In this document: in pieces, positions 45,452 to 56,630 of the stretch
Layout of the letters: every line of letters begins with the position of its first letter
Numbering within the stretch: the first letter of the stretch is position 1
DNA from: an uncultured Alphaproteobacteria bacterium
GTDB lineage: Bacteria; Pseudomonadota; Alphaproteobacteria; Sphingomonadales; Sphingomonadaceae
NCBI GenBank assembly: GCA_963768995.1
Contig: CAVYKA010000005.1
Location: 17,513-81,512, forward strand
Length of the DNA: 64,000 bases
Reading direction: 5' to 3'
Notes under the pieces: model-generated
The model's database searches: none
The model's input: the letters and a program-made list of their open reading frames with translations, nothing else
What the model was told of the DNA's origin: nothing
Program-made: the position numbers and the translations under genes

Positions 45452-47509
45452 ATGAGCGCGCTGATTGCCTTCTGGAGCCATGCGCTCGCGGCGGTCGCCT
45501 TCGGCGCGCTTGCGATCTGGCGTCTGGGCGAGGCGTCACGCCGCCCCGGCCAGCGGCTGCTGCTCGGGGCATTCGCGCTGACCGCCTGTTGGGCCTGGCT
45601 CAGCGCGGTCGCGCCCGGCGACCCGCTCGTCGCGTTCGCGGAAAGCGCCCGCAACCTCATCTGGATTGGGCTACTCTACAGTCTGTCCGCCGCGAGCGGC
45701 GAGCGGCAGCACGGCGTCCGGCTGGTCTATGCCGCGGTCGCCGCCGCGATCGGCCTTCAGCTGGTCGCCGATGCGCTGGCCTTGCTCGGCCCCGGCGGAA
45801 CGGTCGGTCAGACCGCCCTCATCCTTCATCTCGCCACCGCCGCCGGAGCGCTGGTTTTGGTCCACAATGTCTACGGCCAGGCCGCGCCTGCGAGCCGTTC
45901 GAGCATTCGCCTGGCGATGCTCGGGCTGGCGATGATGTGGGTCTACGACCTCAATTATTACACCATCGCCTATCTCGAATCGCCCAGTGCGGCGGGGCTC
46001 GAGCGCTGGCGCGGGCTTGCGGTCGCGCTGACCGCGCCGCTGTTCGCAATGGGCCTTCGCGCCGGCGACGTGTGGCGCATCAAGCTGTCGCGCGCCGCCA
46101 CTTTCCAGTCCCTCTCGCTGTTCGCGATTTGCGCCTACTTCGCATTGATGGCGATCGTCGCCACCGCGCTTCGCGGGTCGAGCGTCGATTGGCCGGCGGC
46201 GCTGACCATTGGCGTGCTGGCGGTGATGACGGTCGGCGCGATGGTCGTCCTGCCAAGCGGCCGGGCGCGCGGCTGGCTCAAGGTCAAGGTGGCCAAGCAT
46301 CTCTTCGAGCATCGCTTCGACTACCGCGCCGAATGGCTCCGCTTCACCGACACGCTCGGTCGCGCCGGGGCCGACGAAGCTCCGCTCGGCGAGCGCATCG
46401 TCAAGGCATTCGCGGACATCGCCGAAGCGCCCGGCGGCCTGCTGCTGATCGGTGACGGCGCCGGCGGGGCTCTTGGCGTGGCGACCTCGTGGAACTGGCC
46501 CGGCGACAATCTGCCGGCCGATCGGCTGGATGATTCGGCCTCGTTCTGGACCGAAGTCGAGCGCAGCGGCCGGGTGCTGGACCTCGAGGCGTTCCGCAAG
46601 GGCTGGGCGAGCAGCAAGGACAAGGCGCTCGCAGTGCCCGACTGGCTGGTCGCGGAGCCTGACGCGTGGGCGGGCGTTCCACTGGTTCATCACGGCCGGC
46701 TGATCGGCCTCGTCCTGCTTGCCGCGCCCGAATATCGCCGCGCGCTCGACTGGGAGGATTTCGACCTTTTGCGCACCGCCGGCCGCCAGGCCGCAAGCGC
46801 GCTGGCCGAGGCCCAGGGGCAGGATGCGCTTGCCGATGCCCGGCGGTTCGAGGAGTTCAACCGCCGCTTCGCCTTCATCCTCCACGACATCAAGAATCTC
46901 GTCAGCCAATTGTCGCTGCTCGCGCGCAACAGCGAGCGTCATGCCGATAACCCTGACTTCCGCGCCGACATGGTCGCGACCCTGAAGTCATCGGTGGGCA
47001 AGATGAACGACCTTCTCACGCGGCTCGCCCCGCACGCCCAGGGACGCCCACAGCAGCTGGCGGCCGAGCCCTTGGATAGGATCCTCGCCGCGTCGATTGC
47101 GGCGTTGCAGCGCGACCAACGTCACGCTCCGCGGCGATCGCGGACTGTGGGCCACGGTCGACGCCGCGGCGCTGGGCCAGGCGCTCGAACATCTGCTGCG
47201 CAACGCGATCGAGGCCAGCCCCGAAGATGCGCCGGTCAGCGTCAATGTGGCGCAAGACGGGAACTCGGTGGCGATCGCAATCGCCGACCGGGGCTGCGGC
47301 ATGGACCGCGATTTCATCCTTAACCGCCTGTTCCGGCCGTTCGTCTCGACCAAGCCCGGCGGTTTCGGCATCGGCGCCTTCGAAGCGCGCACCGCTGTTG
47401 CTGCGATGGGCGGGCGGATCACCGTCGACAGCCGCCCCGGCGAGGGCACGACATTCACCATCCTCGTGCCAGCCGCGCAAGCGGCAGCCGAGCCAGTCCG
47501 GAAAATCGC

Positions 47510-47513
<4 letters not shown>
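45452..47513 (+). CDS. prsK: PEP-CTERM system sensor histidine kinase
   Basis: Multi-TM N-terminus, KHLFEHRFDYRAEWLRFT, GAF, FAFILHDIKNL, NAIEAS, DRGCGM, GFGIGAFEAR; frameshift near 47110. Confidence 0.88.
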
Positions 47514-48898
<1,385 letters not shown>

Positions 48899-49469: not shown

Positions 49470-50779
49470 TTAACGCCGCTCCGCCGAAAGCCGGCTCATC
49501 AGGATGGCGGCGCGCTTGGCCTGCTTGAAGATCGACGGGATGTCGACCGCTTCATCGGCGGTATGGTCGCCGCTGCTCGACGGCCCGAGCCCGACCAGCC
49601 CGTCGACGTCGGCGGCGACGAAGCTGATGTCGCCGGCGCCGCGCTTCAACGGATCGAGCGACGCCATCGCCGCCAGTCCGAGGTCGCGGTTGACGATGTT
49701 GAGCCGGTCGAGCAGCGCCTGGTTGCCGGGCGTCGGCGGCATCGGCGGATAGCCGCCCTCGCCAAAGTCGATCGCGGCCTTCGCGCCGGGCAGCGCGGCG
49801 GCGACGATGCTCCGCATTTTGGCCATTGCGCGGTCGAGCTGCTCTCGCGAAATGGCGCGCAAATCGCCGCGCGCGATCGCTTCGGCGGCGATGATGTTGG
49901 TCTTGCCGGTGACCTCGGCGCGGACTTCGTCCTTGTCGAGCTTGGCGGTGGTGCCGCCGGCGACCAGCCCGACGTTGAAGGTCAGACTTGTCCTCGGGGA
50001 GTTCGCGCCGGAACGCATCGACGATCCGCGCCAGCTCGTAATTGGCGCCATAACCGGCAGTCGGCGAGAACACCCCGCTCGAATGCGCGCTTCGGCCGCT
50101 GACCCGAAGCGTCCAGTCGACCACGCCGCGCCGCGCGATCGAGCCCATGTCGAGCCCATTGTCCTGCGCCAGCCCTTCGAAATCGAGCGCTGCGTCGGCG
50201 CGCTTGCCGGCCGCGACCAGATCGCGTCGCGCAAGCTCCAGTGGCGTGCCCGAATCTTCCTCGTCGCCGGTGAGCACGATCTCGATATTGGCGCCGCGCA
50301 AAGTGCCTGCGGCGCGCATCGCACGCAGCGCGGCGATCATAACCGCCATGCCGCCCTTGTCGTCGGCCGCCCCAGGCCCATGACCCTGGTCGCCGCTGCC
50401 GCTCCCAGCGCTGGAACGGCGAATCGAGCTCGAACACCGTGTCGAGATGGCCGATCAGCAGCAGGCGCTTGCGCCCCGGCGCGCCATTGTGCGTGGCAAT
50501 CAGATGGCCGGCGCGTCCGGTTTGCGGCAGCGGCACCCAGCGCACGGTGAAACCCAGCGGCTCCAGCTCGGCCCGAACCATCCGCCCGACCGCTTCGACG
50601 CCCGCCAGATTGTGCGACCCGCTGTTCTGGTTGACCCAGCGCTCGAGCATGCCGAGCGTCCGCGCCTGTTCGGCATCGACCGTCGCGATCATGCGCTGCT
50701 CGGCCGGCCTCAGCGCGGCCGGGGCAGCGGCGGGAACCAGGAACAAGGCGAAGAAAGCGAGCAGGAATCGTGCGGTCAT
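49470..50779 (-). CDS. M20/M25/M40 metallo-hydrolase (carboxypeptidase G2-like), exported
   Basis: VNQNSGS, LIGHLDTVF, DDKGG, LTGDEE, AHSS, RGAGD. Confidence 0.85.
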
Positions 50780-50925
50780 CGCGCCAGCCTAGCGAGCCGG
50801 CCCCGCTTCGTCATCCCCGCGAAGCGCAGCCACGCGGGCACTGCGAAACGGCCAACAGGCAGCAAACAACTTTCCTATTTGTAACCTATGTGGTTATAAC
50901 TCCGAACTCGAACGAGGACCTGGCT

Positions 50926-51487
50926 ATGGACGTTGACTTACTGATCGCAGCCCTGATCGAGCGCGAAGGCGGCTACGTCAATCACCCGGCCGACCGGGGC
51001 GGGCCGACCTGTTACGGAATAACCGAATCGGTTGCCCGCGCGCATGGCTATGGCGGCGGAATGCGCAACCTGCCGCAAGACCGAGGCGGCGGCAATCTAC
51101 CGCCGCCTTTACTGGCTGCGCCCCGGCTTCGACGCGGTCGCCGAGCGCAGCGCGGCGGTTGCGGCGCCGAGCTGTTCGACACCGGCGTCAACATGGGCCC
51201 GGCGGTCGCCGCGACCTTCCTCCAGCGCGCGCTGACCGCGCTCAACCGCAACGGCGGCGACTATGCCGACCTCGCGCCCGACGGCCGCATCGGCAAGGGC
51301 ACGCTCGCCGCGCTCGACGCGCTTCCTCGCGGTGCGCGGAAAGACCGGCGGCGAGACCGTCTTGCTGCGCGCGCTCGAAGCTCTGCAGGGCGAGCGCTAC
51401 TTGCGCCTCGCCGAGCGCCGCCCGGCCAATGAGGCGTTTCTCTACGGCTGGCTCGCCAACCGCATCGGCGAAGGCGGAGGCCAATGA
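50926..51487 (+). CDS. Glycoside hydrolase family 108 muramidase with PG-binding domain (endolysin-like)
   Basis: REGGYVNHPADRGGPTCYGIT, IYRRLYW, LFDTGVNMGP, LQRAL, DGRIGKGTL, NEAFLYGWLANRI; frameshifted. Confidence 0.88.
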
Positions 51488-51568
51488 TCGACGTTCGGCC
51501 CAGGGCTGCGTCACTCCGCACGGCGTCACTGCGAACTTTGGGAACTTTCGCCCCGCGAGGACGGCCGC

Positions 51569-51878
51569 GTGAGGCGGCTTCCTCCACCCCAGACCTTCGC
51601 CGAGGGCCAGCGCCTGATCTATGGCCTGCTCGCCGCGTCGGCCGGCATTTTCTGCGGCTTCTGCGCGGTCGCCATGATCGCGCTTCTGATGTGGGGCGGC
51701 TGGTCTCCGGCTCGACGAGCATAGCATCGTCGTCATCTTCGGCTGGTCGCTCGGCGGGTTCATCGCCGCGATGGTCGCGGTGATCGTCGGGCTGCTCGCC
51801 GGCGGGCCGGTCGGCCGGTTCAAGATGAGCGCCAGCCGCGACGGCGCCTGCCTCGAAGCCGACGGCGGCGCCGAATGA
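51569..51878 (+). CDS. Two-TM small membrane protein, holin candidate
   Basis: GTG after GAGGA; LIYGLLAASAGIFCGFCAVAMIALLMWGG and IVVIFGWSLGGFIAAMVAVIVGLLAGG; one frameshift near 51712; between endolysin and spanins. Confidence 0.55.
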
Positions 51879-52039
51879 CCCGCGCTCTGCTCGCCATCGC
51901 GTTGCTCTTGCCCGCGGCCGCGCAATTCGCGCCGGCCCAGCAGCAGTCTCTGTGCCTGCCAGCGCCTCCGCGCGCGACGCCCCACCGCAAGATGGACCGC
52001 GTCGACAAATGGCAGCATGACGAAAGGACCCTCGTATGA
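51875..52039 (+). CDS. 54-aa putative secreted peptide
   Basis: MTRALLAIALLLPAAAQFAPAQQQSLCLPAPPRATPHRKMDRVDKWQHDERTLV; ATGA overlaps at both ends. Confidence 0.45.
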   Translation: MTRALLAIALLLPAAAQFAPAQQQSLCLPAPPRATPHRKMDRVDKWQHDERTLV

Positions 52040-52617
52040 TGCTTCGCCTGATTGGCTGGCAGGGGATCGCAGGCCTCGTCCTCGCCGGCGCCTTCGCGCT
52101 GCTGCTCCTGATCCAGAAGGGCGAAACCCGCCACTGGCGCCGCCAGAGCGTCCAATATGAGCAGCTCTATCGCGCGGGCGAGGTCGCGCTGGCCGGGACC
52201 ATCGCCAATTACCGCGCCGCCGCGGCGACCGCGCGCGCCGCCGACCAGGCCAATCTGACCCGCGTCGCCGCCGCGCAAGCCGCCATCACCGAAAGGACCG
52301 CCGATGACTATCAGAACCGCCTGGCTGCTGCCCGCGTGCTCGCGCCTGCTGATGCTGCCGATGTTGAGCGCCTGCGCCGGCAAGACGCCCCCGCCGCAGC
52401 CGATCCCGGCGCTCGCCGAGCAGCGCCAGTGCCCGGCCTATCCGCTGCCCCCGGCGGCGCTGCTCAAGCCGCCGGCGAAGCTCGACTTTCTCGACTCCCC
52501 TCGTTGAAGCTCGGGACAGGCGACGCGCTGACCGCGACCGAGCAGGCGATCCAGCTCGACGAGCTGATCAAATGGGTCCGGCGCCAGCACGGCGTCGATC
52601 CGAACCCGTCAACCTGA
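52036..52617 (+). CDS. Rz-like inner-membrane spanin
   Basis: N-terminal TM, Ala-rich helical segment, linker, C-terminal helix EQAIQLDELIKWVRRQ; hosts nested lipoprotein gene. Confidence 0.72.
   Translation: MMLRLIGWQGIAGLVLAGAFALLLLIQKGETRHWRRQSVQYEQLYRAGEVALAGTIANYRAAAATARAADQANLTRVAAAQAAITERTADDYQNRLAAARVLAPADAADVERLRRQDAPAAADPGARRAAPVPGLSAAPGGAAQAAGEARLSRLPSLKLGTGDALTATEQAIQLDELIKWVRRQHGVDPNPST
52304..52507 (+). CDS. Rz1-like outer-membrane lipoprotein spanin, nested in +1 frame
   Basis: AAGGA RBS; LSAC lipobox; Pro-rich mature part with second Cys (QCPAYPLPP); fully inside Rz-like gene. Confidence 0.72.
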   Translation: MTIRTAWLLPACSRLLMLPMLSACAGKTPPPQPIPALAEQRQCPAYPLPPAALLKPPAKLDFLDSPR

Positions 52618-52674: not shown

Positions 52675-53565
52675 ATGACCAATCGCCGCACTTCGTTCTT
52701 CCGCCCGGCCCTGGGCCTGGGCGCTGCCTCTGCTGGCGCTGACCGCCTGCACGCCCGCCGGATTGCTCACCAGCCTCGACCGGCTGTCGTCGTCGGGTGA
52801 GGCGAAGCGCGCCGCGCAGGGCATCGCCTACGGCGCCGACCCGCGGCAGAAGCTGGACGTGTGGGCGCCGCGAAGCCCGGCCAAGGCGCCGCTTCCGGTG
52901 GTGATCTTCTTCTACGGCGGCGGCTGGGTGGATGGCGCGCGCGGCGACTATGGCTTTGCCGGCGCGGCCTTCGCCAGCAAGGGCTTCATCGCCGTCCTGC
53001 CCGATTATCGACTGGTCCCGCAGGCGCGCTTCCCGACCTTCGTCGAGGACGGCGCGCTGGCGGTCAAATGGGCGCGCGACCATGCCGCGCAATATGGCGG
53101 CGATCCCAAGCGGATCACGCTCGCCGGCCATTCGGCGGGCGGTTACATCGCCGCGATGCTCGCGCTCGATCCGCATTTCCTGCGCGACGCCGAAGGTCGA
53201 TCCCAGAAACCATCCGCGCCGCCGCTCTGCTCGCCGCGCCGCTCGATTTCTACCCGTTCACCGAGGCACGCGGCCGCGACGCGCTGGGCCAATGGCCGCG
53301 CCCCGCCGAAACCCAGCCGATCACCTTCGCCCGTCGCGACGCGCCGCCGATGTTCCTCGCCCACGGCACGTCGGACACCATCGTCATGCCGCGCAACAGC
53401 AAGGCGCTTGCGGCGCGGCTCCAGGGTCTCGGCGCGCCGGTCGAGCTCAAGCTTTATCCCGGCCGCGACCATGTCGATCTCGCCAAGGCGCTGTCGCGCC
53501 CGTTTCGCGGCACCGCGCCGGTGCTCGACGACAGCGCCGATTTCCTCCTCCGCCACGCCCGCTAG
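52675..53565 (+). CDS. Alpha/beta hydrolase (esterase), lipoprotein
   Basis: LTAC, QKLDVW, FFYGGGW, PDYRL, GHSAGG, HGTSD; frameshifted. Confidence 0.85.
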
Positions 53566-53606
53566 TTGCAGCGACGCCGCGCCTCTCCCACATTCCCCCC
53601 AGGCAA

Positions 53607-54162
53607 TTGAGCGGGAGCATCACTTTGGAAAGCTGGCACGGCACCACGATCCTCGGCGTAAAGGCGGGCGGCAAGACGGTCATCGCCGGCGACGGCCAGG
53701 TGTCGATGGGCAATACGGTGATGAAGCCCAACGCGCAAGAAGGTTCGCCGGCTGGGCGCGGAGGGAAAGGTCATCGGCGGATTTGCCGGCGCCACCGCCG
53801 ACGCCTTCACCTTGTTCGAGCGGCTCGAGAAGAAGCTCGAGCAATATAACGGCCAGCTGATGCGCGCCGCGGTCGAGCTCGCCAAGGACTGGCGGACCGA
53901 CAAATATCTCCGCAACCTCGAGGCGATGATGATCGTCGCCGACGCCGACGTGCTGCTGATCCTGACCGGCAACGGCGACGTGCTCGAGCCCGAAGGCGGC
54001 ATCGCGGCGATCGGCTCGGGCGGCAATTATGCGCTCGCCGCGGCCAAGGCCCTGACCGATTATGAGAGCGATCCGGAGAAGCTCGCCCGCCGCGCGATGC
54101 AGATCGCGTCGGAAGTGTGCGTGTTCACCAACGACCGGCTGACGGTGGAGACGGTTGAGTAG
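53607..54162 (+). CDS. hslV: ATP-dependent protease subunit HslV
   Basis: [37 protein letters not shown]. Confidence 0.93.
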
Positions 54163-55254
54163 CGTTCTGCGACCGACGTGCGACGCATTCGTCGCCGCGG
54201 GATCCGCGTGCATTCCTGTCGGCCTGCGCGACCGTCTCGCGGCGCGAAGCCTGCACTCCGCTGGCGCCGCTCAACCTCGGACCGGACCGGATCCTGCGCA
54301 CGTTACGCCTGCCTCCGGCCGTACCGCGCCGGCGGCTTCGTCGTCCGCCGCGACCAGCTCGGCGACAAGGCGCTGGTCCATAATTACGGTCACGGCGGCG
54401 CCGGGATCACGCTGAGCTGGGGAACCTCGCAGCTCGCGGCCCAGCTCGGTCTCGCCGGACACAGCGGACCGGTCGCGGTGATCGGCGCCGGCGTCATGGG
54501 TCTGACCACCGCGCGGCTGGTCCAGGAAGCCGGCTTACCGGTCACCATCTACACCGCCGAACTCCCGCCCGACACGACCTCGCAGCCTCGCCGGCGGCCA
54601 GTGGGGCCCGACCGGCCATTATCGCGAAGCGGCGGTCACTCCCGAATGGCGCGAGCAATATCAGAGCGCGCTGGCGGTCAGCTGGGCGCGATTCCAGCGG
54701 CTCGACGCCGACCGCTACGGCATCCGCTGGCTGCCGACCTACACCGAGGCGCGACCGCGTCGCCGTCGCCCGGGCTCGAACCATATTATTCGGCGTCGCG
54801 GCTGCTCGGCCAGAGCGAGCATCCGTTCGCGATCGACAATCTCGCGGTCTACCGGACCATGTACGTCGAGGTCGGCCGCTACCTCTCGGAACTCGCCGCC
54901 GATTTCCTTCGCGCCGGGGGGCAAATGAAAGTCCGGCGTTTCGGAACCGCTGCCGACCTGACACCGCTTCCCGAGCGGCTGATGTTCAACTGCACCGGCC
55001 TTGGCGCGCGCGAACTGTTCGGCGACGAGGAGCTCGGCCCGATCCGCGGCCAGATCGTGATGCTCGCTCCCCAGCCCGAGGTCCAATATGCCTACACTTT
55101 GCCCGACGGCTACATGTTCCCGCGCGGCGACGGCATCGTCCTTGGCGGCACGTTCGAGCGCGGCGTTTGGGAGACGACGCCCGACCCGCAGACCATCGCC
55201 GGGATCATCGAATCGCACCGCAACGTCTTCGCCTCCGTTCGCTGCACCGCTTGA
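54155..55254 (+). CDS. FAD-dependent D-amino acid oxidase-like protein, permuted motif order
   Basis: [21 protein letters not shown] precedes VIGAGVMG; NCTGLGA, PIRGQ, LGGT; frameshifted N-terminus. Confidence 0.8.
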
Positions 55255-55287
55255 ACTGCGTGACCCAGCGTCCAATTTAACCAGCAC

Positions 55288-56630
55288 ATGAATTACCAGG
55301 CACCCACGGCGGACGCCGGCAACCCTTCCCCAACGAAGGACGCGCTCACCCCCAAGGCGATCGTCGCCGCGCTCGACGAGCATATCGTCGGCCAGGACGA
55401 CGCCAAGAAAGCGGTCGCGGTCGCGCTTCGCAACCGCTGGCGCCGCCAGCAGCTCGGCCCCGAGCTGCGCGAGGAAGTCACGCCCAAGAACATCCTGATG
55501 ATCGGCCCGACGGGCTGCGGCAAGACCGAGATCAGCCGGCGGCTGGCGAAGCTCGCCGACGCGCCGTTCGTCAAGGTCGAGGCGACCAAGTTCACCGAGG
55601 TCGGCTATGTCGGCCGCGACGTCGAGCAGATCGCCCGCGACCTGGTCGAGGAAGCGGTGCGGCTCGAGCGCGAGCGCCGCCGCAACGCGGTCAAGGCGGC
55701 GGCCGAGGAAGCGGCGATGGAGCGGCTGCTCGACGCCTTGACCGGCAAGGGATCGAGCGAGGCGACGCGGGCCAGCTTCCGCCAGCGCTTCGCCGACGGC
55801 AGCCTCGCCACCGCCGAGGTCGAGATCGATGTCGACGAAGCGCCGGCGATGCCGTTCGACATCCCCGGCATGGGCGCGCAGATGATCGATCTGAAGGCGA
55901 TGATGGGCAAGGCGCTCGGCCAGGGGCCGCGCAAGCGCCGCAAGCTGAAGGTGCCCGAAGCGTTCCAGCGGCTGACTGACGAGGAAGCCGACAAGCGCCT
56001 CGACCCCGACGACGTCAACCGCGCCGCGCTTGCCGACGCCGAGGCCAACGGGATCGTCTTCCTCGACGAGATCGACAAGATCGCGGTTCGCGACGTGCGC
56101 GGCGGATCGGTCAGCCGCGAAGGCGTCCAGCGCGACCTTCTGCCGCTGATCGAGGGGACCACGGTGGCGACCAAATATGGGCCGCTCAAGACCGACCATA
56201 TCCTGTTCATCGCATCGGGCGCGTTCCATCTCGCCAAGCCCGCCGATCTGCTGCCCGAGCTCCAGGGGCGCCTGCCGATCCGGGTCGAGCTGAAAGCGCT
56301 GACCGAGGCCGATTTCGTCCGCATCCTGTCGTCGACCCGGGCCAGCCTGACCGAGCAATATCAGGCGCTGCTTGGGCACCGAGGGCGTGACGATCAATTT
56401 CGCCGAGGATGGCATCGCCGCGCTCGCCAGGATCGCCGCCGAGGTCAACGAAAGCCTCGAGAATATCGGCGCCCGGCGGCTTGCAGACGGTGATGGAGAA
56501 ATTGCTCGAGGACATCAGCTTCACCGCCGAGGACCGCCGCGGCGAGACGTTGACGGTCGACGCCGCCTTCGTCGAAGGCCAGCTCGCAAGCATCGCCCGC
56601 AACGCCGACCTCAGCCGCTACGTGCTCTGA
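55288..56630 (+). CDS. hslU: ATP-dependent protease ATPase HslU
   Basis: [54 protein letters not shown]. Confidence 0.95.

Follow-up and report, generated by a model that had tools for sequence, protein, structure and literature searches.

A chromosomal lysis operon of Sphingomicrobium that probably belongs to a GTA regulon and carries a phage-type holin-spanin set

What does a phage-type lysis cassette do in a bacterial chromosome that has no prophage around it? The question is raised by a short locus in an uncultured sphingomonad, found in a 64,000-nucleotide stretch of DNA ("the window") on contig C5 of a 2.27 Mb assembly, which is 81% complete and rich in frameshifts in this region. The initial annotation of the window described a stand-alone cassette of a GH108 muramidase, a 2-TM membrane protein, a 54-aa ORF and an Rz-like gene with a nested Rz1-like gene. 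With the exception of the 54-aa ORF, these components are confirmed. The annotation also stated that the window holds no integrase, capsid, tail or replication gene; no such PHROG match, nor a match to a terminase, was found in the 83/100 selected ORF stretches, a selection that leaves gaps, and no GTA genes were found in the window by tblastn. The comparative analysis described here suggests, with a probability of about 0.62, that the cassette is the lysis operon of a sphingomonad GTA regulon, in which the GTA holin was replaced by a phage holin-spanin set and which would still burst a few cells without a particle.

All genes of the cassette are on the plus strand. The first (50926..51487) encodes the endolysin, a GH108 protein with a PG_binding_3 domain (PF05838, E 1.9e-13; PF09374, E 1.8e-9) and an EGGY motif with the catalytic Glu; its role as a muramidase is predicted from these domains and this residue. 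Its intact homolog has no hydrophobic segment. The closest solved relatives are Sen1395 (6V3Z, E 2.8e-57) and 6V40, which we take to be TtsA. The second gene (51569..51878) encodes the 2-TM membrane protein; measurement on its intact homolog gave two hydrophobic segments. It matched no named holin family in Pfam, PHROG, NCBIfam or the ESM Atlas, where only unnamed clusters were found, and the 124 matches of a representative search were all unnamed. The protein is small, has more than one TM segment and adjoins the endolysin, as a holin does, and is likely to be the holin of an unnamed family. The 54-aa ORF (51875..52039) has a hydrophobic N-terminus and matched no family. It recurs, at equal length, in only one of 80 related loci (L171), and is a lineage-specific insert rather than a cassette member.

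The Rz-like ORF (52036..52617) is unbroken and encodes a putative inner-membrane spanin with one N-terminal TM and a conserved C-terminal EQAIQLDEL block; a homolog matches the Rz-like spanin family phrog_2466 (E 7.5e-4). The Rz1-like outer-membrane lipoprotein (52304..52507) is encoded inside it in the +1 frame and has an LSAC lipobox and a second Cys. With an N-terminal TM in the one protein and a lipobox in the other, encoded in an alternate frame, the pair has the features of an embedded two-component spanin. The lipobox pattern is present in 66 of 77 loci, in 65 of them in the +1 frame, and the remaining 11 lipoprotein genes were found by tblastn. In 74 sequences pS is 0.31 in the Rz/Rz1 overlap and 0.57 outside it, which indicates that the second frame is constrained. 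The lipoprotein ORF starts at about 0.46 of Rz. In this position, the +1 frame, the lipobox and the periplasmic Cys the pair resembles the lambda-type arrangement (PMC6139136).

A domain search confirmed the flanks named in the annotation. The M20 peptidase (49470..50779, minus strand) is the usual upstream flank and lies outside the cassette. The alpha/beta esterase is the first gene of the downstream flank (52763..56630, plus strand), where it is followed by hslV, an oxidase-like gene and hslU, and these genes fix the site. Further upstream, at 45452-48898, there is a membrane histidine kinase and a sigma-54-type response regulator, presumably a PrsK/PrsR-like pair, which is frameshifted too.

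The window copy of the GH108 gene is split into four frame pieces by three small insertions relative to the sister species locus L171, and the 2-TM gene has one insertion. The flanking M20 (2), esterase (1), hslV (1) and hslU (2) genes are also frameshifted. The cassette has 4 insertions over 1.7 kb and the flanking genes have 6 over about 4.9 kb, so that the load of the cassette is not clearly above the background. Because the flanking core genes are frameshifted too, the frameshifts are no sign of cassette decay. At three frameshift sites of the window the contigs of relatives are one base shorter, which is compatible with either error or mutation.

The cassette is not confined to this strain, a prospect that the annotation had left open. 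Of the 151 genomes surveyed in the genus, Sphingomicrobium, 134 have PF05838, nearly always in a single copy. The genus tallies of PF05838, GTA_TIM, capsid, DUF6456, large terminase and tail tube include three genomes flagged as unpublished (G020, G175 and G186), and no claim depends on these alone. In a set of 40 loci, chosen from GH108-positive genomes with few contigs, the GH108 proteins share about 70-80% identity, and 36 of the loci have hslV within about 6 kb. The genes that accompany the endolysin are of three types. A PF11351 holin is found in 29 of the 40 loci (type A), a window-like 2-TM gene with Rz/Rz1 in 5 (type B), and another 2-TM gene with overlapping spanin-like genes in 6 (type C; phrog_456, E 0.002; L042, L043, L045 and L047-L049). 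Among the best 80 of 116 Rz relatives from a GTDB scan, those long enough to judge have GH108 in 58 of 61, the 2-TM gene in 56 of 61, the promoter described below in 57 of 57 and the M20 gene upstream in 36 of 54. The comparison of synteny and dN/dS that the annotation had proposed gave median pairwise dN/dS values of 0.16 (GH108), 0.23 (2-TM gene), 0.38 (N-part of Rz) and 0.44 (Rz1); the value for hslV is 0.13. The cassette is nevertheless dispensable, as 17 of the 151 genomes are without GH108. The type-B endolysin is intact at 52 of 61 loci, broken at 6 and missing from 3, and in the closest sister species GH108 is interrupted by a stop codon. In 12 regions from genomes without a cassette or with a broken one, the flanks are either adjacent, forming clean empty sites, or separated by remnants. 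At two loci (L208 and L211) Rz/Rz1 is kept beside the M20 gene, and GH108 and the 2-TM gene are deleted.

The annotation left the trigger of the cassette unknown and did not mention the conserved promoter found at 50870..50910 (plus strand), upstream of GH108. The promoter has three parts: box I, YTKTCCTAYA (50870-50879), a palindrome, AACC-N5-GGTT (50883-50895), and box III, which is CGACTCG-like (50903-50910). It precedes GH108 in 48 of 52 endolysin loci. The strict pattern occurs in 46 of 61 genomes from the genus, against 2 hits in the control, and in 56 of 78 genomes of the family versus 1 of 72 outside it. Only the strict and composite patterns are specific: box I alone gives 15 sites versus 51 in the control, and a relaxed pattern is equally frequent in controls. 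Among 30 loci from the strict-pattern search, the next gene is a holin in 19, GH108 followed by a holin in 3, and a terminase-like gene in 2; in 1 the holin is second, and 5 have none of these. In many other genera of the family (L100-L128) the promoter precedes a PF11351 holin, and there is no GH108 within 1.5 kb.

The same promoter elements precede a gafZ-like (DUF6456) gene in 36 of 37 loci, with the palindrome shifted upstream; in 2 of these 36 an insertion separates the elements from the gene, and box III is present in 25. An XRE-family gene is divergent from the gafZ-like gene. The combination of box I and palindrome occurs at three sites in the genome from which the window comes and at one in the reversed genome. 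The three sites precede the window cassette, gafZ and, with an IS in between, a terminase-like gene. At this last site (L056, G000:C6:47523-50546) a transposase gene, which we assume to be IS1595-like, lies between the promoter copy and the terminase-like gene. Of the ORFs behind 12 additional promoter sites in the genus, 9 match the small-terminase family phrog_4044. Such stand-alone HTH paralogs are found behind the promoter at G000:C6:47269, C6:752570 and L069-L097, several of them leaderless. A promoter PWM has no strong match at the GTA head-tail promoters. The palindrome alone is common to both, and in the 4 cases seen it lies upstream of the -35 of the head-tail promoter. The cassette thus shares its promoter with the gene of a gafZ-like, probable GTA activator.

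The cassette and gafZ are also lost together. DUF6456 is present in 133 of the 151 genomes; 12 genomes lack both GH108 and gafZ, 5 lack only GH108, 6 only gafZ, and 128 lack neither (Fisher p 5e-10, overstated by kinship). Hence 12 of the 17 genomes without GH108 are also without gafZ, and none of the 51 genomes with a capsid lacks either gene. On the hslU tree the genomes that lost both are spread over at least 4 places. Together, the shared promoter and the co-loss suggest control by an XRE/GafY/GafZ circuit, which would be the likely trigger. The names gafY and repressor are putative and follow from position and HTH domains. DUF6456 proteins are described as gafA homologs, and both gafA homologs and GTA clusters are reported from Sphingomonadales (PMC9765227); in Caulobacter the activator is divided between two proteins, GafY and GafZ (PMC9632790). 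The site reported there for RogA, GGAA-N4-TTCC, is unlike the palindrome found here.

The annotation had proposed GTA release as one role of the cassette, and the part of this proposal that stands is the link to GTAs: most relatives have PF11351 in the same slot, and the promoter and losses are common with gafZ. Release of particles in the source genome itself is not supported. The search for a GTA cluster elsewhere in this genome led to a remnant at G000:C6:369068-379018 (L276 and L277), where both terminase genes, small and large, are intact and of the portal a 76-aa stub is left; gafY-like, tRNA-like, frameshifted XRE and gafZ-like genes come next. Host genes lie behind the stub, well within a contig of 1.36 Mb. 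In the assembly, which is 81% complete, there is no capsid or tail tube, and no PF11351 was found. Across the genus, a capsid is present in 51 of 151 genomes (prophages counted), a tail tube in 33 and a large terminase in 89, many of them partial. In about 15 genomes (for example G064, G074, G110 and G185) the match to the GTA large terminase covers no more than its first 160-175 residues, which could reflect a recurring truncation or an artefact of the search. GTA_TIM (PF13547) was found in 0 of 151 genomes, a result that is uninformative because G033 has a head-tail cluster yet no match.

The lysis locus is retained where the particle is gone. Among 53 near-complete genomes, 27 are without any capsid, and 21 of these 27 keep intact GH108 and gafZ. 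Five genomes (G085, G087, G137, G157 and G102) keep gafY although the capsid, portal, tail-tube and large-terminase genes are all missing. In the first four of these, GH108 has a dN of 0.11-0.19 versus a dS of 0.6-1.45, and dN is far below dS also for the holin, gafZ and the XRE gene. The dN/dS is 0.16 in capsid-less and 0.15 in capsid-bearing genomes, pairwise values that average over time, including the time before capsid loss. A shared early loss of the particle is the simplest reading of the capsid-less genomes, with independent recent losses as a possible alternative. Since the cassette is kept in relatives without particle genes, it is likely to drive a controlled self-lysis of its own.

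In the GTA of R. capsulatus (RcGTA) the corresponding genes are rcc00555 and rcc00556, which we take to be GH108 and PF11351, respectively. This endolysin-holin pair is described as a separate, syntenic GTA locus (PMC5026251) that responds to GafA (PMC9638019). The Sphingomicrobium cassette resembles it in lying at a syntenic site away from the head-tail cluster, in its probable tie to Gaf and in that most relatives hold the PF11351 "gene-transfer release" holin in this slot. It differs from the two-gene locus in that the type-B clade has another holin and embedded spanins, in that the operon persists without particle genes, and in that the endolysin falls under the cut-off of NF040573, the holin-associated N-acetylmuramidase equivalog (66 bits for the window GH108, cut-off 240). 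PF11351 is present in 124 of 151 genomes of the order, and in 19 of the 26 genomes of family f4 it is found downstream of the tail-tube gene, no more than 20 kb away. The six f4 regions examined (L325-L330) are GTA-type head-tail clusters with the PF11351 holin at the end; in none of them is GH108 beside the holin, and a Peptidase_M15_3 gene is found there in the three tested. The likeness to the Caulobacter RogA/GafY/GafZ system lies in a putative split activator, made up of a DUF6456 gene and a winged-helix neighbour, an XRE regulator next to it and scattered accessory promoters. Unlike Sphingomicrobium, Caulobacter is described as having no holin-endolysin pair and lysing through LypABC (PMC9632790 and PMC13236601), and no GafYZ motif could be predicted for it (PMC9632790), in contrast to the clear shared promoter found here.

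Phages are the probable source of the type-B partners. Rz/Rz1 homologs were found in 7 viral contigs of IMG/VR, of which three, presumably transposable prophages, have GH108 close upstream. Homologs of the 2-TM protein were found in 10 viral contigs, and in 6 of the 8 inspected the gene lies directly behind an endolysin, which may be a GH108, GH19, amidase, glucosaminidase or lysozyme protein. A position directly behind five different endolysin families marks a holin slot. One viral contig (L246) carries the full trio of 2-TM, Rz and Rz1 genes at 57-69% identity. GenBank phages searched with the Rz-like and 2-TM proteins gave no matches. The cassette thus resembles those of temperate sphingomonad phages, but unlike these and the lambda-type cassettes it is chromosomal, vertically inherited and preceded by a host GTA-type promoter, with no phage around it.

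The history of the endolysin probably differs from that of its partners. In a GH108 tree of 44 rows, the 38 chromosomal rows of the genus form one group (SH-aLRT 91) that excludes the 3 rows from phages and the 3 from other genera, and types A, B and C are interleaved within the genus group. In an hslU tree of 60 rows, which leaves out loci without usable hslU, 9 of 10 type-B rows are in one clade of 20, whose other members are 2 type-A rows and 9 rows without a cassette; the 6 type-C rows all fall into a single clade. Both trees were built by quick searches and leave many forks open. When the profiles of the type-B and type-C 2-TM proteins were compared, the probability was 9.8%, and homology between them is unsupported. 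We infer that the endolysin was inherited and that phages supplied new partners for it on at least two occasions.

Based on these findings, the following sequence of events may be postulated. The XRE repressor beside gafZ would bind the AACC-N5-GGTT palindrome, and upon its release GafY and GafZ would switch on the lysis operon. The cytoplasmic, signal-less GH108 protein would then exit through the 2-TM holin and cut the wall, after which Rz and Rz1 would fuse the membranes. The resulting full lysis would release DNA, vesicles and cytoplasm. The steps taken by endolysin, holin and embedded spanins would be those established for phages (PMC6139136).

Several other explanations of the locus were weighed. 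That it is a scar left by a recent prophage in this strain is hardly credible and already refuted by the genus survey, even though the Rz/Rz1 and 2-TM genes have close phage homologs and the window copy is frameshifted: the cassette is found at the same site genus-wide, its genes are under purifying selection, the chromosomal GH108 clade stands apart from phages, and none of the 80 related loci has a match to a GTA or phage structural gene or to a terminase. The same observations bear out the claim of the annotation that the cassette is domesticated, and run against its alternative of a cassette that decays or is flanked by prophage remnants in relatives. A slower decay is also conceivable, in which an ancestral GTA-release operon has been silent since the loss of the head-tail genes and survives as a relic because small loci outlast a large cluster. 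The GTA clusters of the genus do look eroded, broken or deleted cassettes recur (the sister species with its GH108 stop among them), the window copy has its four frameshifts, and GTA loss and pseudogenization have been described (PMC10883770). We consider such a relic unlikely, since in four related near-complete genomes that have lost capsid, portal, tail tube and large terminase the frames are still open and the promoters still present across a dS of 0.6-2, dN/dS is alike with and without a capsid, and the large terminase is kept less often than the cassette.

The remaining explanations assign the lysis genes another task. Type 10 secretion, in which a holin and a muramidase open the wall locally for a specific protein cargo, is known from Salmonella TtsA and the Serratia chitinase system; lytic release in Yersinia entomophaga is a further case, and such systems occur with or without spanins. 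The cassette is likewise a domesticated holin and hydrolase retained without a particle, and its nearest solved relatives are Sen1395 and TtsA. In an alignment read against PMC6996933, which names E14 as the catalytic residue of TtsA, it has Asn at the N166 position and is uncharged at 3 of 4 groove positions. However, a phage homolog (L130) has the same Asn, and the spanins point to lysis (PMC9527704). The export role suggested in the annotation also lacks a conserved cargo gene, the neighbours varying among an esterase, a membrane protein and a phospholipase-like gene; there is no local regulator, the promoter ties the cassette to gafZ and terminase-like genes, and the cassette co-varies with gafZ. 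Type 10 secretion is therefore improbable. A module for suicide under phage attack or stress, in which the old GTA circuit would answer infection or DNA damage by killing the cell early, would agree with a regulon that keeps small-terminase-like DNA-binding paralogs and lysis genes after the particle is gone, and with the use of immune-like genes in Caulobacter GTA lysis (PMC13236601), but appears very improbable.

The lysis operon of a GTA regulon thus remains the preferred reading. A broader view, which we put forward tentatively and at less than even odds, is that in most Sphingomicrobium the GTA has been reduced to a particle-free suicide circuit, with holins and spanins refreshed from phages, that is selected for lysis itself. 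The XRE protein and GafY/GafZ would act on one promoter and drive both the small-terminase-like DNA-binding proteins and the lysis operon, and the benefit would be the release of DNA, vesicles or nutrients, or defence, rather than gene transfer. No description of the locus, the promoter or retention without a capsid was found in the main texts searched, most subscription papers lying outside this scope. The cassette provides a candidate Gaf-regulon promoter, an example of a GTA-type lysis locus that includes spanins, and a probable phage holin family that has no name yet. Whether GTAs are kept for gene transfer or for the products of lysis is an open question. As Sphingomicrobium has strains with a whole GTA, strains with the switch and the lysis genes only, and strains with neither, the two benefits may be separated by experiment.
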